DNA of 59,817 bases from Pseudovirgaria hyperparasitica. Taxonomy: Eukaryota. Of this stretch, positions 10,986-59,817 are shown piece after piece. The position numbers were made by a program, and so were the translations under genes. Position 1 is the stretch's first letter; each line of letters opens with the position of its first letter. The DNA lies in assembly GCA_010093815.1 (NCBI GenBank), contig ML996586.1; one strand, 5' to 3'. Below the pieces are notes generated by a model, which saw nothing but the letters and a program-made list of their open reading frames with translations, was not told where the DNA came from and ran no database searches.

Positions 10986-11705
10986 CCCCTCCCCATCCCC
11001 ATCAACCTCCTCCTCACTCTCCCACCCCACCCTCAACCCCCACCCCGTCCCAGTCAAACAAAACTTCTCCGCCGGCAACCTAACCCCAAACTCCCTCTCC
11101 ACCCTCGGCAAAACAGTCCTATTCCTCTCCATGCCCAACTCCAGCAAAAACTCCTTCGGCAACCCAGCGCAAAACTGATGCGCCACCCGACTCCCAATCG
11201 CCTGCCTGATGGCAGCGGCCTTGACGACCGGCTCGGCAGGTTGCTGGGCGGCCTTTTTGCTGCCTGGCTCGTGGGCGGCGGTCAGGTGGTTGTCGGGTGA
11301 GAGGGCGAGCGCGTCGGCGAGGATGCCGACTTGGTAGCGGTAGGCAAAGTCTTGGAGCATGAGGGGGACGCGCTCTTCGTAGGCGTGTACGCCCATGCTT
11401 GCTAGGACGAGGTGGAGGATGCGTTGGTCGCGTGGGCGTTTGGTTGTGCCGGGGTCGGTGGTGGATGTTGGGGCGTGGGTGGGGATGGGGGGTTGGGATT
11501 GCGGTTGGGGTGGTGGTGCTTGTTGTGGTTGTGGTGGTGCTGGGTGGGTGGAGGGTGTGTTTTGCGCGGTGAGGGTCGAGGGCGAGCTTGCTGCTGCTGG
11601 GCCTGCTGCTGGGCCTGCGGTGCGCGCGGCGGTCGTGGGTCCGGTGGTGGGTGGAGGTGTGGATATGCCGTTTGGAGCGACGGCGGCGTCGCTTGGGGAT
11701 GCCAT
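10986..11705 (-). CDS. TAF9: TFIID/SAGA subunit TAF9 (3' end in gap)
   Basis: Histone-fold signature RPRDQRILHLVLASMGVHAYEERVPLMLQDFAYRY and conserved PKEFLLELGMERNRTVLP...GVRLPAEKFCLT. Confidence 0.9.
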
Positions 11706-38100: not shown

Positions 38101-40390
38101 TATAGAGGAGAATATACTTAATATTATTAAGATACTTCTAAATAATAAAGTACCTAGACTAGATGGAATTCTAAATCAATGCCTAAAAAGCACTATAAAA
38201 GCGACTCTACCGCTTATTACTCGTATATTCTAAGTATGCGTCACGTAGGGGTACCACCCCTAGAGCTTCCGAGTCGCCTATACTATTATACTCCCGAAAC
38301 TAGGAAAGAGCCCTAACTCCCTAAAGGGATAGAGACTAATTACCCTTCTCTCCTATCTAGGTAAGATACTAGAGGCCATGATAGCGAAGAAGATAAGTAC
38401 CGCGGTATAGGAATATAATCTCCTCCCTCTAAACCAGAAGGTAAAGATAGATAGCTCCCTAATAATAGCTATCTAATATATTATCGAAGTCGTCTAGGCC
38501 GTATAGAAATAGGGACGGGTAGTATCGCTCCTCTCCCTCGATATAGCCGGAGCGTTTAATAAGGTAAACTATATAAGACTTATTTATAACCTCTAGATGA
38601 GACGAATACTAGAATAGATTATACGCTTTATATAGTTATTTCTTATAGGAAGAATAACTTAGATATATATCTCTAGGTACTAGAGCGAATATAAAGAGAC
38701 GGTATACGGCATCCTATAAGGGAGCACCATCTCTCCGATTCTATTCCTCTTCTTTACGGTAGACCTTCTTTAAGGAATAAAGTATATAGAGGTAGTCGGA
38801 TACGCCGATAATATATACCTCCTAGCTATTAATAATAATACTAACCGAACGTGTAGACGACTAGAATAGAACTATAAGAGGTGCCTCTAGTAGGTAAAAC
38901 GCTATAGAGTAAAGTTCGCCCCGGAGAAATACCAGCTCATACACTTTATTAATTATTAAGGGAAATAGGTAACTAGGGAAGGCGAACGACGCCCCTAAAT
39001 CGACGTATTTAATAAACTACTAGTATAAAGCATGCGCACGCTCGGAGTTATACTAGATAGCAAGCTTAAATAGGGACTATAAGTGGTATACACCGTCTCT
39101 AGGGCCCTCTAGGTAGAAGCCGCTATATAATAGATTATAGCCTCCACATAGGGAACCGCCTAGGATAAGGCACGCTAGCTATATATATCTATAGTACGAC
39201 CCGCCTTCATGTACGGACACGAGTACTAGTATACGGCCCTTATATAGACTAGGCGAATGAAGCTCGAATCCATATAGAATCGTATACTCCGTCTTATATT
39301 AGGCGTATATAAAGCTACTAACACGGTACTACTACGACGCGAGATAGACGTTATAAGTATATATAACTTCTACTAGATATAGAGGGTAGTATACTTTACT
39401 AAATAATAAGCATAGGAATGTATAGAAAACGTAGAATATACTTTCGCCGCGCTACGCGTATAAATCAGCATATATTACCGTGTACTCCTATATATAGGCC
39501 GGAATCGAATATAGTATAGGTGCTTAATAGAAGCCGACTCTAGCTAAGTAGTATAAGAAGTCCGAGATAACCCGGACGCTCTTCTAGACTAGTAGAGCCT
39601 TTAAGAACTCGTGAAAAACATACGGTCGTGGACTTAAGATAAGTAGAAAGAGGTACTCCGTGCCCACTAGACCTTCTAGTAGAATAGGTACCTAGAGTAG
39701 ATTCGAGGGCTATAGAAGGAACCGAGTAAATAGATATATAAAGGCCTAACGAAAGCCTAAGTATCTATACTTATCTAAGCCCGAACGGGCGCCATAGGAC
39801 TCCTATACTATATCTATAAGAGAGGCGTTCCTAATACCTCCCTATAGTATAAGACGTGCGGCCGGAGAGGTATAATACACTACTATCTAGCTATATACCC
39901 TAACCTCTATATATAACGGTAATAGCTTATCTATATCACGAAGACTTTAGATATTATATAATAGCTTAATAAGTACTCTAAGGACGTCTCCTAATAGATA
40001 CTTATATATCTACTACTTCTCTAGTACTAGTAGACCCGGAAATATATACCGGAAGAGACCTAGTATACGCCGGTAGTAACCCGATATATACCGGAAGAAC
40101 CCTAGGAGAACCCCGATTATTAGTTAAGGGCAGCCCTTAACTAATAACCTCCGTATCTACACGTGCTACCTAAGGGTAAAATAATGGTAATATAGGCTAT
40201 AGGCTAATAGGCGTACTCTATAGCTATATACTTAAGATAAAATAGAGGTTTAACGAGATATAGTTATAGATATAAGGAAGTTTTTCTCTATAGGGTTTCT
40301 TCTTATATAGTGGCTTAGACTAGAGGAGGCATAGGCCTATAGAGTACTACTCTACCTAGTTATACAATATTATTATTATTATTATTATTA
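35105..40390 (+). mobile_element. Tad1-like LINE (RIP-degraded, near full length): ORF1 ~35500-36790, ORF2 ~36830-40100, (TAT)n tail
   Basis: Three CCHC knuckles (QCFNCQGYGH.., CGQC.GDH..C, CLNC..HP.W...C); APE motifs ILAIQEP, GDFNLHH, SDH; RT motifs KAPG.DG, WRPIALL, LSLDIAGAFD, GIPQGS.ISPILF, GYADD, FAPEK; tandem tail 40368-40390. Confidence 0.9.
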
Positions 40391-42968
40391 TAGTTTTATT
40401 CTATAGGCTCTCGAATACCCTTTTAGTAGTATTATTATCAACGTAGTCGGGTAACTTATCTAGAGTATCTACCTCGATAGCCGCTAGAATATCTACTAGA
40501 CTATTCGAGAGGGGCGTTACACTAACCCATATACTAAATATAAGGGTATTATATATCGTATATTTATACTATTTTATATCGGGGTTCTTTATAGAATAGA
40601 ACTCGTCTACTATTAATATACCGAGGAATGCTACTTCGCGAGTTTAAGTGTTTTTAGTACCGAATTATTTCGCCCTCTTTACTCTTATAACTATATATCC
40701 CTTAAAAGATTTAAGATATTAGGGTTCCATACTCTAGACGGTACTATAGATTATATAGTTCTTTGCGTATCGCGACGGAAATTCGGTAGTAGCGGTCCTA
40801 TTAATGGGAATTAACTATACCCTAATAATACACTCCTCGTCGGTCTTGAATTTAGTAGTATTACTAATATCGACGCTATATTCCCATTCGGGGTATAGGC
40901 ATCTCTTAGCTAAGTATTATCGGTCTATATATGAGAATTATCGGATACTAGGGGCGTCGGTAAGGGTTTTCGAGTACGCTAGCCGTACTATTATCTTTAT
41001 CGGGTTCCGTTTATTAATTTAATCGGTGAACATGCTATCCGTATTATTATATATCTATTTAAAGCGCTACGGCTAATATACTATTAGAAGGGAACTTAGG
41101 TAGCATAGTATAAATGGTCCTTAAAGGCGGGGTATATAGACGAAATTATCGGTCTAGCTACACGGACATTTAATCGGATATAGAGATTATATCGGGCACT
41201 TCCTATCCATGCCCGAGTCTTAAGTCGGTTATAGGTAATTTCCTAGATTAAGTTCTATATTATCGCGTAGAAAGTCCTAATAAAACGCGAGGCGGATGAA
41301 CGTTATAAGCACGATTATCTTCCCTAGCCCTAGGCTATCTACTAAGATCTAGTACTTCTACGGACCCGCCTACTACTTAAATATAGTAACTACCGCGAGT
41401 AACTAGCCGGCCCATGGCCTATATAACCTACTTATACTAAAGGCTAGATATAGAGTAGGTATATAGCCGAACTTCTTTATTAGGTTATCTAGTATAAGTC
41501 TAAATATACTTATAGTAAGTAACCATATCTCTTCCGTATAATAAGAGATAGCTTAGACTACTTTATTAGAGTTATTAACGGCGAATATTCTATAGGTATA
41601 TTAGTATAGTAGTATATATTCCTACTTACTTCTTAGTATAACTTACGCTTTCTATAGTTTTATACTAACATCGTTATCTACCGGAATTAAGTCCTCTATA
41701 TCTAGCTTTACTTTATCTCTATTAGAGTTATTATCTATAGAAAGAATTTTAAAGTTAAGGCCGTTCGCTAATATACTATCTAATATATATCTACTATATA
41801 AATTATCTACTAACCCGAATAGTTCCTAGTTTTTACGTGTCTACCGGTCGACATCTAGTAGTATAATATATTCTAGTTTTGGGCGTTTTAGAGAATCGAC
41901 TAGGTTTACTATATTATCCGAGAGTATCCTCTTTATTTCTAGTAGCCGTAGATAAGTCTCGCTAGTATCTAGAGGCACGACGGCATTCGTGGGGGAATTA
42001 TCTATATTAGTAATTATAGGCGCATCTATCTTCGATACTACTCTAATATTAGTATCTAGGACTATATATATATATATATATCTAAGTATACTAGCTGCGT
42101 CGTCTTCTATTTTAGTATCTTCTACGTTCTCTTTCTCCGTATGTTCCGACGGTAACTATAACTATATCTCTATGGCTAGTATATTTACGCGTAGATAAGC
42201 CTCGCTAGGCATAACGACATTCATAGATGGATTATCTATATCGGTGGTTATAGCCGCACCTATCTTCGATACTACTCTAATATTAGTATCTAGGACCATG
42301 TATATATATATGTATCTAAGTATACTAGCTACGTCGTCTTCTATTTTAGTATCTTCCACGTTCTCTTTCTCTATATATTCTAGCGGTAACTATAACTATA
42401 TCTCTATGGCTAGTATATTTACGCGTAGATAAGCTTCGCTAGGCACGACGATATTTATAGGTAGATTATCTATGTCGGTAGTTATAGCCGTATCTATCTT
42501 CGACACTACTCTAATGTTAGTATCTAGGACTATATATATATATATATATCTAAGTATACTAGCTACGTCGTCTTCCATTTTAGTATCTTCTATATTATCT
42601 TTCTCCTTATGTTCTAGCGGTAACTATATCTACGTACCTATACCTATAGTATCTATATCTAGTTTAGCCTCTATTATATCTATAGTTATAACCGTTGGTA
42701 CTAACTTACTATTTATAGCCGCGATATGCTAATTAAATTCTCTAGTAACGGTTTCCTTAACTATTCTATAGAGTGTAGTAGTATCTATACCACTAGTTTT
42801 AAGCTCTATTACTACTTCTTTACTTACTATCTTAATAACAGTAGCCCTATATATATCATGACTTATTTCGGGTATTAGATATAGGCCTTAGAGGTACTAG
42901 ATATAAGGTAGAAGGGCGCTAACGCTTAAGGCCTCCGCACGTCATATATACGTGTTACGGTTAGCCAT
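40391..42968 (-). pseudogene. RIP-inactivated SNF2-family ATPase with N-terminal 78-aa repeats; C-terminal lobe missing (cut at LINE tail)
   Basis: One frame from ATG 42968: ILADSPGLGKT (motif I, 41317-41348), GPFILCCPSSLL (Ia, ~41120), ILIVDEFH..KN (II, ~40607), SATPLSNS (III, ~40520). Motifs I, Ia and II are a multiple of 3 from the ATG. Confidence 0.8.
41948..42630. repeat. Tandem repeat, 234-bp unit, ~2.9 copies (coding, 78 aa)
   Basis: Units start at 41973, 42207 and 42441. Confidence 0.9.
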
Positions 42969-43220
42969 TCTATAGCCGGTAGTTAAACTAGGATAGTCGT
43001 GACTCTTATTATACCTATCTATTCCTATATATAACTTAGGCCATAGGTAGTAAGACGGCGTTAATGGCAATAAGATATGAAAACTAGATTTAGGCGGTAG
43101 GAGTTAAGTCGCTGCGTTTAGCGATTATAACGTAATTTCGATAAGTGCGGAGGAAGTAAAGTATATAAGTAAATATTTAATTATTAGAGTAGATCTTATA
43201 CGATTATAGTCGTAGTAATA

Positions 43221-43410
43221 ATATAGCTAGTAGGACCGGGCGTATCCCGACGTGAACTAGGTAGACGCCGGCTTATACTAGTATCGTAACGTCTTAACCA
43301 AATATATACGCTATAGTTATATAGCTAGTAGAATCGGGTATATACCGATATATAGTAGGTAGAAGCCGTCTTACGTCGGATCGTATCGCCTTAGCCAAGT
43401 ATATACGCCA
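43221..43410. repeat. Imperfect direct repeat, 98-bp period, 2 copies
   Basis: atatagctagtag...tatatacgc at 43221 and 43319. Confidence 0.7.
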
Positions 43411-43629
43411 CTCTCACTACCTCTAGCACCCTTTTTATTATTCTATTAGTCTTTAAAAGCGATATCCATATTCTCTATATCTAAGGTGCTTTTAAGGCTT
43501 TTAAAGTTACTATCTTTAGAGCTTATAGGTCGGTCTTACGACTTCCCGGGTGCCGATAGTAGTATATATAGTATTACTAGAGGAAGGGTTAAGTCGTTTA
43601 GGTGATACTATCCACTACCTATAATACTA

Positions 43630-44640
43630 TCTCTATAGGTATCTCTACCGTCATAGACGGTAGCTTTCTATTACTATTATTATACTAATTATAGCGAGTA
43701 TGGCATTAGGGATAGAGGGGCGGATTTATTCGAGCGTAACCTATATATAGCCGTCTATACTATTATATATTAGTCGCTGGTTTATATTTTATTTTACTTC
43801 GGGTATACTATCTATATCCTATCTAAGGCCGAGGAGTATTATACTATTACTATATTCTAGGACACATTCGATTACTAACTATAGGAGCCATCTAATATCT
43901 ACCTCTAGTTCCGTTTTACTTATTATATACTTAACTACTAGCACGATAGAATATATAGTAGTATAGCTCTAGTTAAGTGCCCTCCTAGTCTTCGTTGCGT
44001 ATTAGACCCTAATTTACTATATAAATACTACCGAATTAATACACGAAGCGTCGCTGTGGTCTTTCTACTAGTTAGACGTAGGTACTAGTATTTCGAGGAA
44101 TGTATTATCGTCGAACCTAATTATAAATTTGATTTTTCTCGTAGTATATACGTTAGTAGGCTGTGGGACTACTACGAGTATAGGCTATAAGGTCGTGGTA
44201 TACGAGAGCTATAAGGTCGTGATAGACAGGGGTTATAAGGTTATAGAATATAGGGCTATAATTACGCGCCTCTTCTTATACTCGGAGATAGTTTTTCTAT
44301 AATATACGGTTTTCTATACTATAGTGCGTACCTAGTCGTAGATATAGTATAGCGCCTTTATCTCTATGTACTCTACTACTCTTTCCTATACTACTAGAAA
44401 TTCGCCCGCTACCTTATTAATAATCTTACGTACTCTTTTTACGCCGAGCTCGTTCTTAGTTCGACGCCCATAGTCTACGAGTAGAGTAGCCGTATATACT
44501 TCTATGTATAGCTGCCTTATACACGCCTCCATAGCTTCACGCTTTACTTATATATCTAGGCTTAAGATGCGAAGTAGTACTATGGTAATTACTATATTCG
44601 GATAGTTACTTTATTATAGAATCGGATTCGATATGTTAAT
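43630..44640 (-). pseudogene. RIP-inactivated ORF of unknown function (~330 codons) with internal 24-bp repeats
   Basis: Protein-like frame (EAMEACIRQL...KVAGEF...) with only RIP-type stops; boundaries approximate. Confidence 0.4.
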
Positions 44641-45648
44641 CGTATATAGTTAACATGTGTAGTTAATATAGTATTTATAATTTACGGACTAATTATATAG
44701 TATATATATAGTATATCGTAGGCGTAAGGAAGACGGAGGTATAGGTCGGACGATAGAGGTAGAAGCCGGAATAACGAGGTACCTACTAGGTGAACCTCGT
44801 TTATATCCTTATTATTCCTCGAACATACGTTTATAACACGTACGTAACTTAGCGTGGCGTGGTCGGGCGTATAGTTATTTACTTCATGTTGTCTAATACC
44901 CTTAATAGAATTAGATAGCCATGATTCTTATCTCGCAATATTATATCGTAGGCGACTACGTCTAGAACGGCATATGGCCACGTATATATAAGGTACCGCG
45001 TTAGTCTTATCCCATTTTATATTTATATACTTATCCCTAGGTACTCTCCGAGTATCGTAAGCCTATATTTTATTATATTCGAGTATCGTATCCTTCCATG
45101 CTTTTAAAGTACGCGATATTTAGGTTTACTATATCCTATATATATCATAGTTAAAGTCTAAAGGTGGAGGCTTTAATTAGGGCGTATGTTTTTTTATATT
45201 TTCTCTTTAGATAGTAATATCTCCTAATATAAAGGCTAGAAGTAGTTTTAAAAGTATAAAGGGGATAACTAAAGGAAGCCTACGTTATTAGGCCGGGGCT
45301 CACGGTAGATATAGAATCGTGTTTATTTCTTAATTAGTGGGTACTAGTTAACGTGCCTAGTAGCGCCGTATTATCTAATAGCGCGTCCATACTAGAGTAG
45401 ACGTAATAGAAATACCCTTAATAGGTCTTTAATAGAGCTAAACTATCTACCTAGTAGGATATCGTAACTATATCTAAAATAGATATAGAGGTGTACTTAC
45501 TAAGAAGCCGTGACTAAGTAGCCCTAACACGTGAGTCTAATCGTATACTATTACTAATTAACTTCTATATCTTTATATATCGTAACACCGCCGTCTCGGT
45601 CGGTATCCTCGTAGTCTCTATCGTCCTAGCCGCTAGTAGTTACTTCAT

Positions 45649-45734
45649 TAGTAGTATTAGCTCTAGTAGTATTAGTTCTAGTAGTATTAGTTCTAGTAGT
45701 ATTAGCTCTAGTAGTATTAGCTCTAGTAGTATTA
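45649..45734. repeat. 15-bp tandem repeat (~5.7 copies) in helicase C-terminal tail
   Basis: (tagtagtattagctc)n. Confidence 0.85.
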
Positions 45735-48700
45735 ACTAGATTATTACTATTTATACGTGCTAGTAATTTAGTACGGCTAGAATAATAACGCCGAGTATAA
45801 CCGGTAGTCCTATAATTATAGTAAAACGTACCTATAAGCGTCTTAGGTTTAGAGTAAATATTAGCTTTATAGCCGATGTTCTAATAGTTATTATATATAA
45901 GCGTCGACCCTCTTAGACACTTAATAGACTTATATCCTTTAACATTATATTTACGGTAGACTAGCGGCTTACGGGGCTTAGTACTATTAGTAGTTTATTA
46001 ATCGCTTCGTTCTCCCCTCTCTCTAATACTAAGTATAGGGCGACCATATTAGAGATTAGGCATATTAGAGAGTAGAGGGAGGCCATCTAGGTCGGGGGTC
46101 GTGCACGTGTATATCGCATGAATCTTAGAGTACTTATTCTATATCTCGCCGAGTACGCCGTCTAGGACTTTCTACCTCTTAAGAGATACGAAGTTAGTAA
46201 TAATAACTATTATCTATTTAGCGCGCGTAATAGTAACGATGTTACGGTTTACTTCCGAGAGGAAGCCGAAGCGATTAGTTTAGACCGGGTCGATAAGGAC
46301 TATATCATTATTATGACCCTAAGAACCGTCCTATGAACGCCATTAGATAAGCTTCTATACCGGCTTAGGTAGGGCATTAAATCGAGCTTTATCCGCTACG
46401 GTAAGTATAGTTAGAAGCGAGTTCCTAACCATCCCTTTAAATAGATCACGTTAGGCGGCGTATATAGAAATATAGAGCACGTAATTAAGTGCGACGCCAT
46501 GACGGAAGAGCTCGGTAATAATCCACTAAGTGAAACGCAATAAGTCTATATTATATATTAAGTTATTTACCGTGTACGCGTGATCCTAGTTAACGTTAGC
46601 GTATATAACGTGTTAATAGCCGTAGATTCTAAATATTTATCGAACGGTCTCTACGAGTAGTATATCGATATTATTTATTATGCGGGGTGAGGTTATTAGC
46701 TCGCCCGAGTAAGTAATTAGCGATATAATATTTATTATTCTAGAAACTAAGCGTTCTAACTCGGTAAGGCGAGTGGTCGGGAAACTATATTATATCTAGC
46801 GCTTCATGAAGGAGATCCTCTAGTTCACGGCCTATATATTAGTACTATCACGCTAGTAGGTGTCGAGCTAGCGTAGGTCGCCGACGTAAATAAATGTCGG
46901 TTACCATTCTATAGTAGTGTAATTAACGATAATCCCGAGTATATTACTTTTAAGAATACACGTAGCCTCTTCTATTACAACTAAAATCGGATATATATTA
47001 CGGGCTACCTTGGCGATATTTATAATATATAGGGTCTCTATATAAATCTAGGCGTAGATAGTAACTAGGTCCTAGGTAGCGAGGTATAGCTCGTTCATCC
47101 TATTATACTCCTCCTTAGGCATGTCCTTATTACGAGTATAACATTTATAGATAGCGTATAATAGCTAAGCCGTTTCTTTCTCGAAATTCTTAGGAATCCA
47201 TTTATATTAGTATCGAGATTTAATAAGTCCGACGACCTCAAGCGTAATATAACCGGTATATAGTTTCTATAGACGAGCACGGGGATCCGTGCTATATTCT
47301 AATAGTCGTTTACTATAGTCGGCCTAGGCTTACGCGAGGATAGTACCGCCTATTATATTATTCTAGGTTGGCCCGATAAGAGGGTCGCCGCGACGAGATA
47401 GTCTAGCTATAGTAAAGAAAACCTCTTAATTAACGGCTTCGGGGTATCTTCGAAGAACGACCGGTATCTTTAGAGACTTATAGCGAGTAAATATATTACT
47501 TATATATTTATATGCTTTTCTTATAGCGTCGTCGTAGGTTTCGTTAGTTAGACCGATAATAACATATATATATATTCTATATATTTAGGTGGAACCTAGC
47601 GTAGGGAGGTGCGCTGTCACATCGCTAGATGGGATGACTACCTTAGTAGTATAAGCGATAATAGGAGTACCGTTTATTTCGTTAATTAGAAGTATAGCTA
47701 GTAGTAGATAAAGCTATAAATGGCTCTTCCTAGCTCCTCTATAGCCGTAAAGTAGAAACTAAGCCCTAAGTACGTCCGTCGCCTATATATAGACATACTA
47801 TTATTAGGGAGATAGTTCCGAACGTATAATATCCTAGAGATCATAGAATCTTTTATAATCTTTAACGTAGCGGTTATAGTTAACGGGTTAAAGATTTAGG
47901 TAGTTATTACTAAGTATTAGATCCTATACGGAGGGTAGTAAAGGGGATAGAATACTAGAGTAGACTTTAGATAATATTAGGAGTGTGTATATATCGACGA
48001 CGGGGCTAGTAATAGAACCTTCGTCGCTAATAATATCGTAACTATATTCTATATTCGTGTCCTTATTATTATCTAGGGATATAGATAATTTAGAAAGAGT
48101 AATGAGGGTATCCTAAGGCTCTATACTATAATCTAGAATCTCGTTATTAGGGTTAGGGGACCTATATATTAGAGATATAGACACCGAGTCCATGATAACA
48201 TTAAGGACTATCGTATTAAACGCATCCTAAGCGGCGTGGTCGTCTACGCCGCCGTCTCTAGGAGCTTACACGGTATAGTAGGTTAGTTTCTAGCACGTAT
48301 TAATACGTTACTTAGTAAGCTTATCGTAGGTTTATACGCTAACTAAAGCCGGAACGTCCGTAAACCCTATAAGCGTGGTAAGGGACGACCCGATTATACT
48401 TAAACTAGTATTACTAGTCCGAATAAAATATTTAGGACGAGCTCGAGTTATATTAGTAACCGTATCTATTAATATAATCGGTACCTTAGATACTTTAGAA
48501 GGACGCCTAACCTTATTAAAGACTTTTAGAGCGAGGTATTTAAATAGAAGGACGCCTAGGCGAAATCGAAGGACTTTAAAGTGGTACGCGTCGTCATTAT
48601 AATCCTTTAAATCCACTTTAAGGTACCCACGACTACCTAGTTCTATATAATGGAATCCTTTCGCATCGATAGGACAGACGATAGCTAAGAGCGCCCGAGT

Positions 48701-49722
48701 AACACCTAAGAGCTAGATATACCCGATAGTAACGTCTTAGAATTAGGATAATAGAAGATCCGCCTATTCGTCTTATAAGATACTTATAGCGATATATATT
48801 AGGTAGTTAAATTTCTTATTAAATGACTCGCGGTAGGGAATAGAGATCTAGGGCCAAGTGTCCGGCCTACTTATTATACCGTATTATATATAGGGAGTAG
48901 TAACTTCTATATACCATGAATTAATTAGATCGCTCTCTAGTTTAAGCTTATTATTAAAGCCGGTAAGATCTATAGGGTTATGTAGCGGTAGCAAGATATA
49001 AACTATAGTATAAGCATCTAGATCTTCGAAGAATTACTTTACTCGTTCGTATATTATATTAGGTCCGACATACGACGGGATAGTAAAACCTATACTAAGA
49101 AGCTCGCTAGCTATAAGTTTAATAATCTAAAAGTCGCAAGGGTCTTCGTAGAGGCCGGTGTTAATATATAGTATATTAGCTTTATCCGCTTCGCTTATAA
49201 TAAGATTAGGAAGTTTAGAAAAATACTCGATAAAGTCATCTACTTACTTAACCTTAAAGATCTATACCATAGAGTAGTCGGACGATAGAAGGATGTTAGT
49301 ACGATTAAAGCGGAGTAAGCTTATTAAGGATACTAATTTCCCTTTATTAATCTATTGGAAGTAAGTATATAACTTAATCTAAGAGCGGTACTTAGAGAAT
49401 TCAAGGAATCTATATATATAACTAATTAACTCTTCGAAGCCGTGACCTTTACTATAAGCCTTAAATACTACTAGCTTAAGCTCGGCTTGAGTTTTCGCTT
49501 ATTCCTACTTAAGTCTATCTATTTCTCTACTAATACCATAGACATTCCTAAAGGTTAACTATAGATCGCCCTATATAAGAGAGATCTAATAGATGGCGTA
49601 AGTAGAAACGGGAGCCTTACTACTTTAGACCTTCTTAAGTTTATACTCGTTATTAGAACGGTAGTTACCGGTAAGTATACTAAAGACGAGTGGTTTATTA
49701 TCGGTCGAGACGGTAGTCGTAT

Positions 49723-50058
49723 CGTAAGCTTCGACTTAAGTATAAGGCTCGGCTTAAATATAAGGCTCGGCTTAAACGTAAGGCTCGGCTTAAATATAAG
49801 GATCGGCTTAAACGTAAGGATTAGCTTAAACGTAAGGCTCGACTTAAACGTGAGGATCGGCTTAAACGTAAGGCTCGGCTTAAATATAAGGATTGGCTTA
49901 AGCGTAAGGCTCGGCTTAAACGTAAGGATCGGCTTAAGCGTAAGGCTTAACTTAAACGTAAGGCTCGGCTTAAACGTAAGGCTCGACTTAAGTATAAGGC
50001 TCGACTTAAACGTAAGGCTTAACTTAAACATGAGACTCGGCTTGAACGTAAGGCTCAA
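49723..50058. repeat. 18-bp tandem repeat (~18 copies) encoding (E/D)PHVQ(A/V) at helicase N-terminus
   Basis: (ggcttaaacgtaaggctc)n on +; in the helicase frame, de-RIPed, GAG CCT CAC GTT CAA GCC. Confidence 0.9.
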
Positions 50059-50339
50059 TTACGTCGAGCGTAGACTAGTTCTAAATATCGCCGAATATAA
50101 CGAGTTCTTAATCCATATTATAAACTATAAATATAACCTCGTTAACTATTATATAGAATAGACCTTAAGAGTTAATAGAGTCGAGTTCGACGTAGCGTTT
50201 ATATATAGTTATAATTAACACGGAATAAAGTACAGAAGATAAGATTTAGGTTTAAAAACCAAGATAAGTAGAGGAAAGGTTTATAGAAGTTTTCTTTTAT
50301 AACATAGGGATAACTAAAGGAAGCTAAGATTAACGTAGG

Positions 50340-51200
50340 CTAAAGTAATAGTAGCCTAAGTAGTGTATAAAGTGGGGTAGTATACTACTATTATATGAGT
50401 CTAGTAGCTCGCCGACCGAGTATATAGTACGTTATAGAAGGCTATCGAATTAGGGCTTAGATAAATATAGGTATAAATGGATAGTATTATATGAAAGTTT
50501 AACCGTCCGATATACTAACGCCATAGACGCCGAGTCTATCTTCTAAATTCTACGGTAACTATCTCTTCTAGATAGTAAGATATTACTAGCCATGCCTTAC
50601 CTATTCTATTCATAGTAGAGACACTATATGTCCGTTAGTATACTAGCGCACGTATCTAACTACCGCTTAAATATAACTTGCCTTATACTATAATACGTAC
50701 TATTACGCTAATATTATACTAATATTCATGGGTTCGTGTCTATAAACTCCTCTCCCGTAATATTAAAACCGGTAACATTATCTAGCGATAGGACTATATA
50801 AGAAGGAGGCGGACTTAGTATGTCTAGTTATATATAGACTTCTACTATCGCCTTAATAACCACTACGCCGGTAGGCGCTTCCTCCCCGGCCCTAAATGGT
50901 ATATAATATTAGACTTTTATACGTTCGCTCGAACTCTCGAGTGTACCGGTATTATATATTAATTCGTAAGGCGATTAGGTTATAATCGCTAGCATATTAA
51001 TATTAACGGGTAGAGTAGGCGGGACGGTAGCGCTCGACTCTCCTAATATAACGTTAGCTAGCTAATAATATAATGGGTAAATATACTAGTCGCGTCGTTA
51101 TTAACATCTATCGTTTAAGTAGGTAAAGCGTTAACTACGCCTATATTAAGTGGACTAGGGCGTACCTATATACTATTAATAAAAGACCTAAATCTAGTAA
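50340..51200 (-). pseudogene. RIP-inactivated small gene of unknown function, probable intron ~51044-51087
   Basis: Protein-like frame (PFRAGEEAPTG...LSLDNVTGF) and an intron-like gtatat..gctaac..tag; boundaries approximate. Confidence 0.3.
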
Positions 51201-51482
51201 GGTATCCGCCGTATATATAATACTATACGTAACTAATAACCGAAAACCTAAGATATATAAATAGTATTATATCCACGGAAGAGCGACGGTATTATACCGG
51301 TATATACTAGATATACCGGCATACATCGGTATACACTACTTAGTAGTCGTAATATATTGATATATGCCGATATCTATCGGCGTATATATATCTTAAGCTT
51401 ACCTACGCGCGCTAGACGGATAAATCCCGCTACTATACTCATAGCGCGACGTTCCTATATAGTTAGATTATAGTTAACACGT

Positions 51483-52335
51483 TATAGTAGGCTTCTAAAT
51501 ATACCGTTTATATCGCCTACGCGGAAAACCACCCAATCTAGTCCTAAGCCTAGTGCCTATTTAATAGCCTACTATAATACCTAGTCTAAACTATCCTTAC
51601 GAAGGATTATATTACTCGACTTACTCGGTAGAATCGGGTACTCTAGGTAGACGCGACCATGCCTATAACCGTCTACGTCCCCTAGTATATCTATAGACGA
51701 GCTAATAAATTCTAATAGTTTATTTATACTAAGACCTACTATATCGCGTATTTTTATAGCCTTAATATTTAACGGCGTTATACTATTCTATATAGCCGTT
51801 ATTAGTACTAGGGTAACCCGAGTACGATCGCGGATAAGGACTATAGATATACGTATATAACACGGCGGCACGGCTACCTTAGAAGATGTAGATACTAGTA
51901 GTCCGACGGTCGAATAACTAGGTTAGCTAGATATATTAGGCGGGTTCGTAGGGTATATATAATATTATAATAGCTTATCTAGCCCGGGGCATCGTTTTAA
52001 CATATATAATGGTATTTAGCTAACCGCCGCTAGTTACGCGTAAATACTAAGAATATAGTATTAAGTTAATATATAGCATCTACCCGTGAAATAGTATAAC
52101 TACCGTTAATAAATATACATTTATCCGCGACCGTCTATAGGCAACGCTCTCGTTTTATATGGTGGTCCTTTACTTCCTTACTACGTAGGTTTAGTAATAG
52201 GCTAGTAAATTCCTCCTAAATTAACTCTTCCATGTGTACCCGAAGTTTCTACCTGTTAGACGCTCTAAATATATAAAGTAGGTCGAGACTCGCTTCTACT
52301 CGGCTATTTATTCGCGGCTAGCCGGACGTAGCTAT
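51483..52335 (-). pseudogene. RIP-inactivated small gene of unknown function
   Basis: Protein-like frames (KLRVHMEELI.EEF...RERCL.TVADKC; GRVYLEYP...LDWVVFRVGD) that need one intron to join. Confidence 0.35.
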
Positions 52336-53315
52336 AGATAGACGGAATAGAGAATAGTATATATTACTAGGGTGATGGAGAGACGAGATATATATACTAT
52401 ATAATAGGTATAGATATAACACGTACGTTACGGCTACATTAACGCGAGTAGTCTATATAGTTATCGGTAATAACTCGTTAATTTAATAGAGGCGGGGAAA
52501 CATACGGCCGGCATCCGATCCCGCACTAATATAGGGCACGTGAAATAACGACGTTAAATATATAATACTCTATACACAACGTTAAGTTTACCGGGCGATA
52601 GCCCTACTCCGGTAATACCGTCTATATACGATAAAAGAGTAGTATAGTATATAGGTATAATAGGATAGTAGGCCGTCTTTACGACTACATGGATCTACCG
52701 CTAAAGAGAAATACTATAAGATCTAGTATATACTATTATAAACATACTATTATCTATTATATTTAGGCATGCTAACTCGGCGTACGCGAAATATAGATAA
52801 CCGCTAACCCGTCGTGGTTCGCTATTATTCGAAGCCTAACGAGTAGAACCGAGGAATAAATAGTAGAAATAGTTAGATATAAGAGTTTTTAGCGATTAGG
52901 GGATGGTCTAGGTAGCTCGAGGGAAGGATAGAGGACCTCCGCAAAGCATGTGCTTATGTAATATTAATATGCGAATATTTAAGAGAAGTATGTAATGCTA
53001 ACTATTATCTCTATAATAGGTCGTTATCGATTAGTACTATTATTAAGAAGAGATAGACGAGCGTAATGATAAATAATCGTAGTAGCGAACCCTTATATTA
53101 AACACGAATAATACAACGCATTAGTATGGTATATTTATCTATTATAAGAACGTACATCTAGTTACCGTAGTTTCTAACGGTCTATATAAGAACGTATATA
53201 TTAATAATATAGTAATATAAGTCTAACTATACTTATAAGGCCAGGGAAAGAATAAAGGAAGAGGAGGAGAAACATTAGGAGGAGGAGATACTTAAGGAAG
53301 ACGTTTCCCTAGTAA

Positions 53316-53449
53316 GAGCGTTATATACCCGGTATATACTTATTTATACTTATTTACATAGACTCGTTATATACCCGGCACTTATTCATTAATAGACTCG
53401 TTACGTACCTAATACTTACTTAACCATAGACTCGTTATATGCCCGGCAT
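53316..53449. repeat. 34-bp tandem repeat, 3-4 copies
   Basis: gactcgttatatacccggcacttattcattaata-like units. Confidence 0.75.
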
Positions 53450-53894
53450 CTAACGAGATATAAACGCGAATAATAAAAACATTAGAATCGGGTACGAGCT
53501 AGGTCTAGTAGGCCTAGAGATATAGTTCGGATTTTAGGGTATTAATATATATAATCTATCTATATTAGGTTAAGACTATCCGTATCTAGTTCTACCCGTG
53601 AACGAGGATCCTTTAAGTTCTATATGCCCCTTTTAGAGGCGTGGAGTTTTTATACTAGCTAGTAATTATTAGATAATAAGGAGGTGCATCCCTAGATACT
53701 CCTTAGCTAAAATTATAGATAGTTATTAAATATAAGCCTTTTATAGAACTAATCGTAATAAACCACGATTATTCCTTAGAGATATCCTAGTATAGGATAT
53801 AACTATCGAGTGCTACTATGTATAAACCATAACTTCCGGTATATACTAGTATATACCGGCATACTACGGTAGACGGCGGTAGATAGTGATAGAC

Positions 53895-56800
53895 TTACGA
53901 CACGCGCCCGTGTTTTAACACTACGGTTACGTTTCGTCTATTTATAGCCTAGAAGTCTAGATTATATACCTCGTTATAGATCCCCTAATTACTATACGTG
54001 TTTAACTAGAATAAACTATCTATAACTAACTAATATAATATAATCTATATAGGGCGTAGGACATGCTCTAGCTCGTAGACACGGAACCTATCCATTATAC
54101 GAGTCTTATTACTAGACCTTTAACCCGCTATACGTAATAGTATAAGGCTACTAATAGTATTAACATTACCTCTACCTAAGTTATTAAGTAGTTTAACTAA
54201 CGCATCTAGGAATCGCGCCGCTATACTACTAGTTATATTAATACTCTCTATATTATATACCTCTAGAAACATACGGACTTTACTAACCCGCTTCCCATTA
54301 AGGTGGTTACTACCCTTATTAAACTCCTATACTATTATATAATCCTCCCTAGCCTTACTACTCTTTTACTAGTTACGGGCATACCTTACCCGAATTAGAT
54401 TAAAGGCCTCTATAGATATATCTCTATCTAGTTATATCGGTACGTATATAGTCTTATATATATAGATAGGAAGGACCCGTGCCTACGAAGGGTCCTTTTT
54501 AATACGTTCGATATTCGTACCTTTTAATATATTATCCCCGATAAGCCGATTACGATAGTTACGTATAAAGGGTATAACCGTATTAAGTAATATAAAACTA
54601 CTACTATACACGTTATAGAGGTCGCCGACGGTAGTCTAGTAGGACGTAGATAGTCCATGGCTCTATAAGACGTAGAGTGTATATTCACTCCGGCGTGGCT
54701 CCTTTAGAATACACCGCTAGCCGACTAGCTTACGTGTATTATCGAGCTACTCTAGGCTAGGGGCTACTAATATACTAGTACTAGCCGCCACCTCTATACT
54801 ACTAGAGATTTTAGTATTTATCGTACGTATATCTACTACTAGTATCTACTATAGAAACGTCTCCCTCTTATTTAAACCTTAATATAATTCCTTTACTACG
54901 ATATAAGATCGCTCTAGTAGCTCTACTAATATTAGATATAACGAACTATGGTATTTAATAGCATTAACTAGGTACGATAATGCATGGAACTTCGGAAAGT
55001 TAAAATGATTATCCTCCGATTTATCTCTATAATATAGTATAAACTAGTATTTCAGGTCGTCTAAGCGTAATATAGCCTCTTCTAAGTATACTAGTGTCTA
55101 CGTATTATGCGTATAGTACGCCGCTAACATATATATATTAATAACCGCCCGTACTACGCTTAGGAAGTATTAATTATAACATAGGAGCGGTTTAAAGGCG
55201 ACTATAAACACTACTAGTATACGCTTAAATATCGCCCCCGTCTATTATATTACTAAAGTTATACACGTGAGTGGGTTATAACGACCGAATGCCCTAATAG
55301 ACGCGAATCGCTTATCGATCACCTTCTTTACTCGTTCTATAGGGGGTATACCGGTAAATATACCCTTTAACTTATATCCTATACACTCTTAATTAATAAC
55401 ATACGAGACTATCCAATTAAACGTATGTTCTAATATACCCTTATATAGTTAATATAGAATATCCGGAGCGACCGCGCGGTATATATTAACTCTAGTAAGT
55501 AACTAGGCAAAATTATCTAATGGCTCTATCCATCTACTAGAATACCGACTCTTAACCGATTAGCGAATATAATAGCCCTATGCTACTAGCGCGAAAGACG
55601 TTAACGAAAACGATAAGATACTAGGTATACTCGTCCTATTATCTATCTTACTACTAGTATACTCGCTACTGTAGCTATTAGTTATTAACTCGCGACGTAC
55701 ACGGTAAACCTATTTCTATAATAACGAGTGTATACGGAACTCCTATATACTAGTAATAGCTTCTCGTAGATACTATCGTCTGTTACTAGGGACTATATAT
55801 ATTAGACATGTATACTAATGGGATACACCCGTGATAAGCACCTACTCCGGAAAATCTATAATATATAAAGCTAAACGCGGATAGTACTTACGCAAGCCGC
55901 CATCGGCATATAATACTAATACTCTAGTACTCTATATAGCCTATAACACTATATAATAATTAGTATAGTTAACGACTCTATCATGGGCGGATATACGGGC
56001 TAGAACTTTACTTATAACCTAATAGAATATAAAGCGATTCGCTACCGTTTCTAGCTTAACTACTAGTAATAGAGTAAGTAGTAGAAATAATAGTAGACTC
56101 CTAGATAAGCGGACGTTTAGTGGCAGATTATAAATAGATAGGTAGACTAGCTATACTACTCTATTACTACTATGGTTAGTAAGGTTTATCTTATCCGAAG
56201 ATAAAATAATAGGGATAATAACGGTACTATCCGGAATAGTAGCGTGTATATCCTACTAACCATCTACTATATAGACTTTACTATATACCCGGTCGCCTAA
56301 ACTAGTAAATTATCGTACTAGCTTAAACACGAGCTTACTAGTAAACGGTCGGTATCTAAGGAGGAATTCCACTAACGTAAGCGGATCTCTATACTAGTAT
56401 TTAACTATAGTAGTACTAAATATATTATAGCTACGCTACTAACTTTTATACGGTATCCCTTTAGGGTAGTATAATAACTACTTACGTACGATATTAGATT
56501 TTAGTATAAAAAGGTCGGGGGGTATAGCGGAAGTCTATTTAAGGATAGTAGTTAATTCATCGTATACTATATTCGAAATACCGAACCGATTCATCTATAT
56601 TATAAGGCGCTCTATAAACTTACTATTGAATTAACCGAATCGGGCCTACTAAATTAGTTACTACTATAAACCTAGACTATATACACTCACGTCGGACGGA
56701 TTATCACGTCTACTCTAGTCCACTATAATATATATACCACTCTCCTCTTCGAACGTTTTTATTAAATATATAGTACTAGACGCCCTCGTCGCCATGGATA

Positions 56801-57750
56801 TAGCATTTCTACTATATATATTAGACTAATATACTAAATCGGCACCATGGCTACTAGTAACGCCGTCTATAGATTCCAGGTCTAAAATAGAATTAGAGAA
56901 AATAGTAGTATCTTTACATAGGGTAATATTAGTAGTAGAAGTACCCAATTCTATAGGCTCGGACTCCTAATTAACGCTTGACGGCTAAACACTAATAGAG
57001 CGAACTAAAGAGTTCTATCGACTAATATAACTACGAGTACTAAAGCCGCGCCGTAACCCGGTCGATGGTAGTAGCCACGGGCCTAATGGTTATAATAATA
57101 ATAGCGATACGGCAAGCCGTGCTCGTCTATACGGTTCCAAGTTATAGTACCTACAGATTATATAGTATATACTACTAATCTTTCTACTATAGTATTAGTA
57201 AGAGACTACGGCCCGTAGCATCTCGAGGTATAGTTACTATAAAGGAAAAATACCATAGTATAATTATTAGTAGATAGTAATGATATAGTATACGGTGGAT
57301 ATTCTAGGCGTATACTAGAAGAAGTTAGGTGTAAGCCCGTCGAAAGCCCGATATATATCTACTAACCCCCGACTTCTACCTAGCTCTTAGCCCCTTAATT
57401 TCTATACACGCTTACTTAAAATTATTAATAATAACGCGTAAGCATCACGCGTCTATAAAAACACTATATTAGTCTACGCCTAAACCTTTATCGTGTCTAC
57501 TAGCTAGTTATTATCCCGCTATCTAATATTATTACCTAGTAGGTTACCGACCCATTACTAATGAAAATATCTACTAATCTCTTATATATCTTCTCTATAG
57601 GACCTCTAATACAGAAGACGGTTAAGGGACTATCTAGCTACCGTGGCGGTAACACTAATAGAAGATAATCTAGTAACTATAGTAAACTAAACGGGATAGG
57701 TAAACGAAGATGCGATATAACGTAGACACGTGTTAGCATTAATAATAGGG
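53895..57750 (-). pseudogene. RIP-inactivated Plavaka-family transposase (core 53895-56650; start uncertain, 56790-57750)
   Basis: In one frame: IIPIILSSDKTNLTNHSG (~56170-56219), CADGGLRKCYPRLALYIADFPEQVLIT...CP.C.VP (~55790-55915), VAPDILHQLYKG (~55440-55470), HFNFPKFHALSH...IKYHGS...E..ERSH (~54900-55010), WLNTYSDW.IYNEVY (~53965-54010). Confidence 0.85.
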
Positions 57751-58150
57751 ACTTATATAATAGCTATCGACATAAAAAACGTATATATATACACCTAGCT
57801 TATCTCGACGCGTTCGTTTATCTACTAATAACCTAGTAGTCTAGGTATACCGGCAGCGAATATGGTAGTAACGCCCTATATAGCTTAGACGTCACGGTAA
57901 CATCCTACCGTAATAGTAACCGGGGATACAACGGCCTTACGTCCTCTCCTCCACTATATTAGCTATCTAGCTTAATAGAAGAAGGTAGAGAAATAGTAGT
58001 AGAGAGGGAACCAACTATCCGTGAAAAGAGGCGGTCCTATAGAGATAGTCTCTAGCCTTACGAACGAGACTAGTACCTTACGATAATAGAGATTTTAATT
58101 ACTATAACGTTTTTAGGCCGGTTACTACCGGTATTTAATCGCCTTAATAT

Positions 58151-59400
58151 ATGGCTAGATAGTAGCCTAGATAGTTTTAGGATACTAGTATAATCGGCCT
58201 AGACAGCCGCCGGAGATATTAATCTTAGTAGCTACTATCTTAATTATAATTTATAAAACACACCTCCCGCCTATATTATTACGCTAGTAAAGGAAGATAT
58301 AATAGACTTCCGTTACTAACTCCTCTCTAGAGTTAGATAGATAGTATCCGAATACTAGGACTAGGAGATAGCCGAGAAGAGAAAAGCTAGTATAAGTAAC
58401 CTAATACGTAATAACGCGTATATAGGAGTAAAGGTATATTACTTACGTCGTATTAGACGTGTTACTAATTATTAGTATAATACTAGCGTAACTCGGAAAA
58501 TGTTTATAGGGCTAGTAGTAATTAAGGCTCTAAAGTTAGTTCTACTATAGTCCCTAAGATTTCTTAGATTAAAGGAGCACTATAGTAGTATATTCCGACC
58601 GATCCCACCATCCACGATTACCATTATATATATTATAATAAGGCATGCCCTTAACGAATATAGTAGCGGGCGGGCGCCGAACTCGTCCTTCGGTCGCTAT
58701 AGATTCGCACGCTCTCTACTAATACTAGGTATATATATATACCTTTATCTAATTGCGTGCTAAATTATATAGAGGAATAGCGAGCGCTAAGCCTAACATA
58801 GTCGAACTAGGCGCCCTACCGCATCAACTACATTTAAAAATCGCTAATAGTATTAGTATTTATAGTACTAACACTAATTAACCCGGATACTATATATATA
58901 AACCCATATAAAGATAACCTAGATAACTTCTCTAAAGTAGATGTAGATAACTTAGACGAGAGTGAGGAGTCTAAGCTATCGGGTAATATAAGTATATACT
59001 AAAGTTATAGAGGCTATATAGATACTAACTACTACGAAAAGAATAAGTCGGATACTCTAAACCAGTTGGATAAGTACCTCGAATTATCTCATGCGCCATT
59101 AGATATAGGTAAGAGTTCTATACCACTAGTAGTGGCTACGGATAAGATTATACCATCTCGGGTATTAAGTATAGACCCACTCTAAGTAACCGCGGAAATA
59201 GTAAATGATAGTATATATACGTATAGTATAAATAAGTCTATTACTAACTTATTATCCCTAGTTATAGCTACCTTAACTAGTAGTCTATCTACCCCGACCG
59301 ATACTTAAATTAAAATGAAGTTAGATGGTGGCGGACGTTTAAGTCGGGTCTTTAACCTATATATAAAGAGTATATACTTTTAAGAGAAGTCGGATATTAG
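58151..59400 (+). pseudogene. RIP-inactivated DUF6532-like gene with introns, divergent from the transposase
   Basis: De-RIPed F.GPAVIKALK.VLL.SP..LG..E.Y..MFRPIPPSTIAIVC.VVRHALDEYSSG (58504-58670) resembles the DUF6532 consensus from memory; intron-like segments ~58434-58475 and ~58729-58772; ends approximate. Confidence 0.45.
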
Positions 59401-59817
59401 TATATAGCTAGGGAACTATATAGACTACCACGAGGCCGAATAGATAATATAAGAGAGAATAAAAATAGTAACTAGAAATATAGAGGGAAGTGTCTAGTGG
59501 GAGAAAAGGTTATTAAAGGTAGTTCTAGATAAGGACACCTTTTAATAGATAAAGGACACCACCTAAAGGTAGAAGAAAGGAAGGTCTACTATATTTCATT
59601 ATAGCTATATAGTCAGAGAGAGCTTAGAATAGTACCATTTAATTTAAGTTCCTAGTCTAATTAATTTTTAACCTCTACTCTCTATTATATACTATCTTTC
59701 TAGTATTAAATTTAAAGACTATAATTAAATATACTAAAGATATAATTTAGAATAATAAGATATATAGAGTTATAGAGATACTTTAGATAAAGATATTACT
59801 TTAGAAAAGAGACTTCT

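Follow-up and report, generated by a model that had tools for sequence, protein, structure and literature searches.

A RIP-degraded, multi-copy repeat block with a Plavaka-type transposase, an SF1B helicase and an SNF2-like ATPase remnant in Pseudovirgaria hyperparasitica: a probable large cargo-bearing DNA element

The window analysed here is the whole 59,817-nt stretch of contig ML996586.1 (assembly GCA_010093815.1), and its right-hand part is taken up by a repeat block strongly degraded by RIP (Table 1). Genes in the block were recognised from translations in which stops were written as X. Four are recognisable: a Plavaka transposase, a DUF6532 gene, an SF1B helicase of the Upf1-like type and the N-lobe of an SNF2-type ATPase, with three of the four in the same orientation. 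The TA/AT index is 1.51-1.78 in the ten 2-kb bins of 40,001-59,817 as against 0.32-0.83 in the bins of 1-24,000, and (CA+TG)/(AC+GT) is 0.20-0.29 in the same ten bins as against 1.06-1.39. GC content of the block is 0.34-0.40, and stop-to-stop frames of at least 80 aa in 38,000-59,817 number 11, the longest being 198 aa. The indices across 40,001-59,817 thus bear out a preliminary description of this DNA, which had spoken of at least 19 kb of uniformly RIP-mutated sequence, and no long open frame is left in it. On the right, GC falls to 0.21 at 59,600-59,799 and a contig of depth 3,473 begins at 59,616, so that the limit would lie near 59,615, a position taken only from the GC drop and that one contig. 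It may be added that the window stops 200 bp past this presumed limit.

Table 1. Features of the block and of its left neighbour (positions in the window; strand; basis or detail)
Feature	Position	Strand	Basis or detail
RIP-degraded repeat block, one copy, left-cut, right limit approximate	40391..59615	.	RIP indices, flat summed contig depth, GC drop
Non-LTR retroelement interrupting the block	35331..40390	+	RVT_1 at 38,321-38,962
SNF2-like ATPase remnant, N-lobe only	40391..43499	-	motif I block from 41,360, motif II-III block from 40,625
234-bp tandem repeat, 2.7 copies, 89% matches	41997..42632	-	in frame, N-terminal part of the SNF2-like frame
Stretch without recognisable coding content	43500..45919	.	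profile scans; 15-bp tandem repeat 45,649-45,734 inside
SF1B (Upf1/AAA_11-AAA_12 type) helicase remnant	45920..49722	-	core ~46,130-47,572; AAA_12 46,193-46,807
18-bp tandem repeat, 17.4 copies	49743..50056	-	in helicase frame; hexapeptide units, one stop codon each
Stretch without recognisable coding content	50200..53800	.	profile scans
Plavaka transposase remnant	54882..56414	-	Pfam domain 55,779-56,414 and collinear BLASTP match 54,882-56,393
DUF6532 domain of gene divergent from transposase	58260..58691	+	PF20149, E 8.8e-8

Plavaka-type transposases are DDE enzymes related to CMC/CACTA that act by cut-and-paste, and the name reportedly comes from Iyer et al. (2014). The transposase remnant carries PF18759 (Plavaka) on the minus strand at E 2.1e-27, scoring 96.6 bits where the cut-off is 26.3. 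An intact Plavaka protein of 780 aa aligns collinearly with its frame by BLASTP (E 5e-12 and 3e-5), and a word-indexed protein search with this frame gave a match for 1 of 8,000 candidates. Both the Plavaka-type transposase and the divergently oriented DUF6532-like gene of the preliminary description are therefore upheld by their Pfam domains, the latter on the plus strand.

The helicase occupies one frame, 1,426 codons long (45,920-50,197) and with 88 stops. PF13087 (AAA_12) is found in it at E 6.8e-10, with 39.3 bits against a cut-off of 27, which agrees with the Upf1-like SF1 helicase of about 1520 codons proposed earlier. Pfam gave no AAA_11 row for this frame. The phmmer alignments do cover both lobes of the matched proteins, for example residues 653-1113 of the query on 352-822 of the match P0001, in which AAA_11 spans 300-594. 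In 1.84 billion representative sequences phmmer gave 31 matches at E ≤0.001, all over the helicase core; of the 12 that were scanned for domains, 11 have AAA_11 together with AAA_12 and one has AAA_12. About 650 N-terminal residues of the frame have no match. The same search found no intact relative, the best match being at E 1.7e-10 with 21% identity, and against PDB sequences there were no matches at E ≤0.1. A hit to DNAJC11_beta-barrel opposite the 18-bp tandem repeat (E 0.0074, 16.3 bits versus 27) was taken as chance.

The SNF2-like frame has 51 stops in 1,036 codons, and SNF2-rel_dom scores below the Pfam cut-off in it (E 0.14, 11.7 bits versus a gathering score of 24.9). A test of its motif blocks supports the assignment. 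The blocks, PSSMs made from 13 SNF2 proteins, were scored over the six frames of 25,001-59,817. For motif I the place in this frame has the top score among 69,498 positions, 10.0, with a runner-up of -3.3; for motifs II-III the top score among 69,324 positions is likewise 10.0, with a runner-up of -20.4. The two top places share one minus-strand frame, are separated by 245 codons and follow each other in the correct order, and single CpA-to-TpA reversals turn GLGK-ATA into GLGKT and DE-TTC-TAT into DExH. On the motif block hhalign gave E 1.3e-4, while the best PDB match of the frame is at E 0.4. A 16-column block near motif IV scored best (12.2) at 40,556, within the motif II-III stretch, and reached 9.1 at 44,477 of the opposite strand; neither is an outlier, and we do not count it as evidence. 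The motif V-VI block reaches -28.2 at best, as against 120.5 in an intact host gene, a search of the minus strand between 24,601 and 41,000 gave no Helicase_C, the SNF2 C-lobe, and the remainder of the gene was not found elsewhere in the window. A word-indexed protein search with this RIP-degraded frame gave no intact relative among 7,999 candidates at E ≤0.01. The earlier assignment to the SNF2 type hence stands for motifs I, II and III of the N-lobe, ordered in one frame; a score above the Pfam cut-off and a C-lobe were not obtained. An intact SNF2-RING host gene (14,652-18,527) sits 22 kb from the block in the same window; it was considered as the source of the degraded part and set aside, the best BLASTP match being at E 0.44.

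The SNF2 gene ends after motif III, at about 40,391-40,400, where it is cut by the non-LTR retroelement on the left. Because of this cut, the left end of the block is not a terminus, and position 40,391, the left limit given for the candidate unit before, is in fact a break. The retroelement has one 41-nt hairpin sequence twice (35,331-35,371 and 40,108-40,148) and an (ATT)n tail at about 40,359-40,390; a search for its target duplication gave no convincing match to the 30 bases past the tail. Further to the left, the flank also has LTR-like direct repeats at 25,971-26,975 and 32,726-33,397.

The content of about 6 kb of the block is unrecognised, in two stretches of 2.4 and 3.6 kb between the genes, where no family was found at E ≤10 on the minus strand or ≤1 on the plus strand (~43,500-45,900 and 50,200-53,800). 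The 3-4 unknown ORFs of the preliminary description thus found no confirmation in these scans. Scanning of all six frames of the block gave no reverse transcriptase, integrase, tyrosine recombinase, Rep or Pif1, and no DUF3435 tyrosine recombinase was found in the six frames of 40,391-59,817; the RVT_1 of the adjoining retroelement was detected at E 5.6e-17 under comparable RIP. The Plavaka transposase is the only recognisable transposition enzyme of the block. Starships, Helitrons and Helentrons are all large mobile elements of fungi; Starships have a DUF3435 tyrosine-recombinase captain near one end, and in Helitrons and Helentrons a Pif1-type helicase is joined to a Rep (HUH) nuclease. The block shares with the latter the possession of a helicase, which is of the AAA_11/AAA_12 type and comes without Rep or Pif1. 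These scans are in line with what had been put forward at first, namely that the block has no retroelement motif and differs from Starships and Helitrons.

Repetition of the block was followed in two public sequencing runs, X1 and X2; a single study made both from the same sample, and the window itself may derive from them. On 39,818-59,817 we found 19,394 (X1) and 9,682 (X2) contigs at ≥80% likeness, with 30 of 30 bins covered. The contigs point to many diverged copies, and the differences in X1 are nearly all transitions (C>T 403, G>A 395, A>G 256 and T>C 192, versus 18 others). At each of the 39 variable sites listed within the block the alternative letter is seen in 4-23 contigs, and at least about 20 variants can be distinguished per site. 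Summed depth, which is the sum of contig means and as such gives no copy number and is unfit for ranking genes, is flat over the 28 bins of 40,485-59,817, with a CV of 0.16 (X1) and 0.12 (X2); it is 8.9-10.6 thousand for six gene segments in X2. The bin of 39,818-40,484, in the retroelement, stands 13-15 times above the block. Given this flat depth over 19 kb beside the far higher retroelement, the block seems to be repeated as one unit, with all parts equally represented. The best-supported loose end within the block has 4-5 contigs. Two contigs join distant positions (47,074 to 57,180 and 52,410 to 56,659), each being a single contig with 22 letters on a side. Exact words of 26 and 34 bases, taken from stretches insensitive to RIP, were each searched in a metagenome collection and gave 0 matches. 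Among 285 pairs of inverted repeats none joins both ends of the block (longest 37 nt at 76%). Of the multi-copy mobile unit proposed before, the multiple copies and the seemingly equal repetition of the parts are retained, and terminal inverted repeats were not found for it.

We consider it somewhat likely (about 55%) that the block is a RIP-inactivated, left-truncated copy of a large multi-copy Plavaka-type DNA element, of at least 19 kb and probably more than 20 kb, that spread as a unit with an SF1B helicase and an SNF2-type protein as cargo. Such an element would have spread to at least about 20 near-identical copies, carrying the helicase and ATPase genes besides the transposase and the divergent DUF6532 gene; RIP would then have mutated all copies, and the non-LTR retroelement would have entered the SNF2 gene of the present copy later. 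The whole block was presumably mobilised by the Plavaka transposase. The helicase and the remodeller-like protein may have served the element, for example in chromatin access or silencing escape, rather than being passively captured host genes. We put forward more tentatively a fuller version, in which a giant (>20 kb) Plavaka lineage, new to description and living in a RIP-competent ascomycete, possessed a working SF1B helicase and SNF2-type remodeller for transposition or silencing evasion and multiplied in a burst, reaching dozens of copies, until RIP destroyed it.

In AT-rich regions degraded by RIP, repeats are usually nested into mosaics, and the left flank, with its RVT_1 retroelement and LTR-like direct repeats, is an example. 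A rather unlikely, though the best surviving, alternative is accordingly that a Plavaka of normal size (transposase and DUF6532, ~53.8-59.6 kb) lies beside one or more unrelated RIP-degraded repeats with the helicase and SNF2 fragment, nested in an AT-rich region. The two contentless stretches that part the genes would suit it, as would the failure to find common termini among the inverted-repeat pairs. Yet the summed depth is even over the six segments where that of the adjoining retroelement departs 13-15-fold, there is no internal point at which many copies diverge, a second mobility enzyme is absent from the six frames and three of the four genes share a strand. Since RIP requires duplication only and not transposition, the mutated state could also be explained if a Plavaka had inserted into a chromosomal segment bearing host genes for a helicase and an SNF2 protein, and that segment had been amplified segmentally or in tandem, e.g. 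in a pericentromeric position, and then undergone RIP. The unseen inverted ends and the intact SNF2-RING gene nearby would accord with this, but the number of variants per site is high for segmental duplication, the SNF2 part is no recognisable copy of that host gene, and the two joining contigs, few and short-anchored as they are, resemble the internal-deletion derivatives typical of cut-and-paste elements; we regard it as improbable. Least probable is that a larger, e.g. Starship-like, element holds the block as cargo or as an internal part and has its captain and ends beyond the window or to the left of the break, which would fit the missing left part and the closeness of the window's edge, neither true end being in view, but not the absence of a DUF3435-type recombinase, nor the high copy number and pre-RIP near-identity, which to our knowledge have not been reported for Starships.

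For the preferred reading of one large Plavaka-type element, parallels are in print. Giant Plavaka elements with three accessory genes, 17.4-19.1 kb long, are described from the red alga Bostrychia moritziana, and like the block they have a Plavaka-lineage transposase with several other genes, high copy number, mostly degenerate copies and internal tandem repeats (bioRxiv 10.1101/2025.02.11.637652). Their cargo as described there is PAG1 (unknown), PAG2 (DNA methylase and SET) and PAG3 (ParB-like and 2OG oxygenase), whereas the block has the SF1B helicase, the SNF2-like ATPase and DUF6532; also their termini are defined while those of the block are not, and the host of the block is a RIP-competent fungus. 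We found no methylase, SET, ParB, 2OG oxygenase or Tet_JBP family in the block at the Pfam thresholds used, at a sensitivity that RIP lowers. The fungal families PlavakaA/B (PMC12730594) and the Plavaka of the ascomycete truffle Tuber, from which the group was thus already known (PMC12581995), share the PF18759 transposase and a fungal host. As far as the sections available of these two papers go, cargo where reported is a TET/JBP gene, for which the block has no match, and the ends are TGT..ACA, CATCA..TGATG or CATAC with target duplications of 2-3 bp. Such family motifs are hard to see here because RIP would blur short motifs and the left end is a break. In one supplement of PMC12730594 the words helicase and SNF2 have no occurrence. 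Enlarged En/Spm (CACTA) elements are cited in PMC6431247 for Chondrus crispus, with 4-5 ORFs in 16-20 kb; they are likewise cut-and-paste elements of the CMC group brought to about 20 kb by extra ORFs, in a host of another kingdom. The large KDZ transposons of Cryptococcus (6.4-10.9 kb; PMC11588098) are also large fungal DDE transposons with extra ORFs of unknown role; they differ in their KDZ transposase (PF18758), half the size, activity and a basidiomycete yeast host. The preliminary remark that no described family with this gene set was known is therefore too strong as to kind, giant red-algal Plavaka and En/Spm being in print, and holds for the exact set within the parts of these sources available. 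We found no report, in the literature searched, of SF1 helicase and SNF2 together in one Plavaka element; preprint supplements outside that scope (e.g. Bostrychia Supplemental Table 6) might list further cargo. The block is thus probably a new cargo variant within the known giant cargo-bearing Plavaka/EnSpm kind.

The present copy is dead and incomplete, and its value is therefore that of a lead for reconstruction of the family. If the block is one element, the range of giant Plavaka/CMC transposons with cargo would reach from red algae into RIP-competent fungi, and their known cargo would be widened by a new kind, a pair of motor ATPases of which one is an RNA/DNA helicase and the other of chromatin-remodeller type. 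This would fit the emerging view of large DNA transposons that bring chromatin- or DNA-modifying helpers with them, and would give annotators of transposable elements a reason to revisit the large 'unclassified' RIP-degraded repeats of ascomycete genomes.

We read the block, the RIP-degraded repeat that runs from 40,391 to about 59,615 of the window, with a probability of about 0.55 as a copy, left-truncated and inactivated by RIP, of a large cut-and-paste element of the Plavaka type that carried DUF6532, SF1B helicase and SNF2-type ATPase genes. The window changes character at ~25 kb in its dinucleotide ratios by bin, the bins of 1-24,000 being ordinary (TA/AT 0.32-0.83, (CA+TG)/(AC+GT) 1.06-1.39) and those from 26,001 to the window end having TA/AT of 1.51-1.78 and (CA+TG)/(AC+GT) of 0.02-0.29, a pattern that marks repeat-induced point mutation (RIP) of CpA to TpA. 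To our knowledge, experiments have established such RIP only in Pezizomycotina. The GC content of the block is 0.34-0.40 and only 11 stop-to-stop frames of at least 80 aa overlap 38,000-59,817, the longest having 198 aa, in agreement with the RIP-mutated state claimed in the preliminary description. It may be noted that RIP reduces the sensitivity of all protein searches used here. Elsewhere, the window holds 700 N, and the 1-kb bin 10,001-11,000 has a GC of 0.193 against 0.55-0.62 in the surrounding bins; the N gap probably sits within this bin.

Features of the block and its surroundings
Feature	Position	Strand	Evidence
Plavaka transposase	55,779-56,414	-	Pfam E 2.1e-27
DUF6532	58,260-58,691	+	Pfam E 8.8e-8
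AAA_12	46,193-46,807	-	Pfam E 6.8e-10
SNF2-rel_dom, below cut-off	~40,500-40,630	-	Pfam E 0.14, 11.7 bits vs 24.9
Hexapeptide tandem repeat	49,743-50,056	-	17 units
78-aa tandem repeat	41,997-42,632	-	2.7 copies
Non-LTR retroelement	35,331-40,390	+	RVT_1 38,321-38,962, E 5.6e-17
Host SNF2-RING gene	14,652-18,527	-	intact frame, 1,291 codons
9-mer pair	59,531-59,560	+	exact, 21 bp apart

A Pfam scan of the six frames of 40,391-59,817, with stops read as X, showed four families in the block, and the transposase, DUF6532-like gene and SF1 helicase claimed from the sequence are all recovered by it. A DNAJC11 match opposite a tandem repeat (16.3 bits vs 27) was taken as chance. The transposase frame is collinear over 54,882-56,393 with an intact Plavaka protein of 780 aa, the sole match of a word-indexed search with this frame. 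The helicase frame (45,920-50,197) is single and unbroken, with 1,426 codons and 88 stops, and its upstream end is formed by an 18-bp tandem repeat of 17.4 copies, which is in frame and coding. When the last 1,200 codons of this frame were searched by phmmer against 1.84 billion representatives, 31 matches were found at E <=0.001 (top 1.7e-10, identity 21%), all 31 confined to query residues ~650-1,150, and a close intact relative was not seen. Since 11 of the 12 matches scanned with Pfam bear AAA_11 and AAA_12 and the other one AAA_12, the helicase is by sequence of the SF1B, Upf1-like type; its long N-terminal part matches nothing. The regions ~43,500-45,900 and 50,200-53,800 gave no Pfam family on the minus strand at E up to 10 or on the plus strand at E up to 1, and so no confirmation of the 3-4 unknown ORFs proposed in the preliminary description.

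Three weak SNF2 matches coincide on one stretch, namely those of Pfam, of PDB (CHD1L, E 0.4) and of hhalign against an alignment of 13 SNF2 proteins (E 1.3e-4, probability 54%, 52 columns). As a threshold-independent test, position matrices from this alignment for motif I (23 columns) and motif II-III (52 columns) were slid along all six frames of 25,001-59,817. Motif I comes first among 69,498 positions at 41,360 (-) with a score of 10.0 (runner-up -3.3), and motif II-III first among 69,324 at 40,625 (-), also with 10.0 (runner-up -20.4); both stay first when the scoring also admits residues that a reversal of RIP-type changes would yield. They share strand and frame and follow each other in the proper order at a distance of 245 codons, and their codons read GLGK-ATA and DE-TTC-TAT, where a single CpA-to-TpA reversal in each gives GLGKT and DExH. 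We accept from these motifs an SNF2-type N-lobe. The C-lobe is absent: Pfam matched Helicase_C nowhere on the minus strand between 24,601 and 41,000, and the top score of the motif V-VI block was -28.2, where the control, the intact host SNF2 gene, gave 120.5. The claimed SNF2-type ATPase is thus upheld for its N-lobe, below the Pfam cut-off, and fails for its C-lobe. Towards its N terminus, the SNF2-like frame has an in-frame coding tandem repeat of 78-aa units. Precomputed Pfam entries for the host gene, which lies outside the block, include PF00176, PF00271, PF00097 and PF13923 and mark its product as an SNF2 ATPase with RING fingers and Helicase_C; the top relative among 5.8 billion proteins has only 32% identity over 26% of the query, and the gene has no recognisable relation to the degraded SNF2 fragment 22 kb away.

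Two public sequencing runs of one sample of one study (X1 and X2) contain 52-60% of the words sampled from 45,901-55,900; since the window itself may derive from them, they do not count as independent support. At 80% likeness, 19,394 and 9,682 of their contigs aligned to 39,818-59,817, covering 30 of 30 bins. By likeness the X1 contigs divide into 6,283 at >=99%, 5,926 at 95-99%, 5,735 at 90-95% and 1,450 at <90%, and their differences are nearly all transitions (403 C>T, 395 G>A, 256 A>G, 192 T>C, 18 others), which is how copies near-identical before RIP would look. The alternative letter is carried by 4-23 contigs at the 39 listed variable sites within the block, and since up to 23 contigs bear it per site, about 20 copies or more can be told apart, in line with the multi-copy state claimed earlier. 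Summed depth over 28 bins of 40,485-59,817 (a bin with an internal 234-bp tandem repeat excluded) has a CV of 0.16 in X1 and 0.12 in X2, and over six segments (SNF2, gap, helicase, gap, transposase, DUF6532 side) it is 18.0-25.2 thousand in X1 and 8.9-10.6 thousand in X2; this quantity is no copy number and is unfit for ranking genes, showing only that no part stands out. The retroelement-tail bin is 14.5 and 12.9 times higher than the block. The reading as a mosaic of an ordinary Plavaka element and unrelated repeats, which we consider unlikely, has to be set beside this even repetition and beside the loose end with most support inside the block, which has 4-5 contigs. Junctions of 47,074 to 57,180 and of 52,410 to 56,659 would fit internal-deletion derivatives, one contig each being weak. 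A non-mobile segmental amplification would share the multi-copy state; we regard it as improbable.

The likeness of the SNF2 frame ends ~35 codons past motif III, where an (ATT)n run (~40,359-40,390) forms the tail of the neighbouring retroelement. A 41-nt palindromic hairpin sequence occurs twice in the latter, near the 5′ end (35,331-35,371) and near the 3′ end (40,108-40,148), the second copy being followed by ~240 bp and then the (ATT)n run. Therefore 40,391, earlier given as the left limit of the candidate, is a cut of this copy by another element and no terminus; full-length members of the family must exceed the portion visible here. That the block is a piece of a still larger element with its captain out of view would agree with such a truncation, and is the least probable of the alternatives. 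On the right side, GC drops from 0.30-0.34 to 0.21 at 59,600-59,799 and a contig of depth 3,473 (other listed contigs 150-660) starts at 59,616, because of which we place the right end probably near 59,615, 200 bp inside the window end. This contig spans the last 200 bp (59,616-59,817) with 1 difference; another repeat, present in many near-identical copies, seems to start there. An inverted repeat joining both block ends was not found among 285 pairs, the longest being 37 nt at 76%. Two occurrences of a 9-mer, with no further exact match in the window, lie 55-85 bp short of the presumed right limit; the pair may represent binding-site repeats in the subterminal region of a CACTA-like element, or be due to chance. 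Further left, direct repeats of 90-92% identity (25,971-26,313/31,787-32,129; 26,304-26,975/32,726-33,397; 32,128-32,277/32,577-32,726) suggest an LTR-type element of ~7 kb; the GC of 25,971-33,397 (0.22-0.27) is far below that of the block, and its minus strand gave no Pfam family.

In Bostrychia, giant Plavaka elements (17.4-19.1 kb, three accessory genes) are reported to form a third of the genome (bioRxiv 10.1101/2025.02.11.637652), and Chondrus En/Spm elements of 16-20 kb with 4-5 ORFs are cited in PMC6431247; the block, left-truncated, has ~19 kb. Fungal Plavaka families are catalogued with defined ends, some with a TET/JBP gene (PMC12730594), and the terms 'helicase' and 'SNF2' are both absent from one supplement of this catalogue. 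Truffle Plavaka elements are described with 2-bp duplications and CATAC ends (PMC12581995), Cryptococcus has large, active KDZ elements with extra ORFs (PMC11588098), and a published list of chromatin genes that transposons have co-opted includes fusions of SNF2_N with transposon domains. The preliminary description knew of no family with this gene set, and an SF1B helicase, SNF2 and DUF6532 together with Plavaka were not found in the published literature searched by term; to claim that no comparable family is described would be too strong, because with these Plavaka, En/Spm and KDZ accounts the kind of element is already known. The genes, the RIP mutation, the multiple copies, their even repetition and the truncation are direct observations; in the Plavaka-type element that we favour, the transposase would have mobilised the whole block, and the two ATPases would have served the element in some role.
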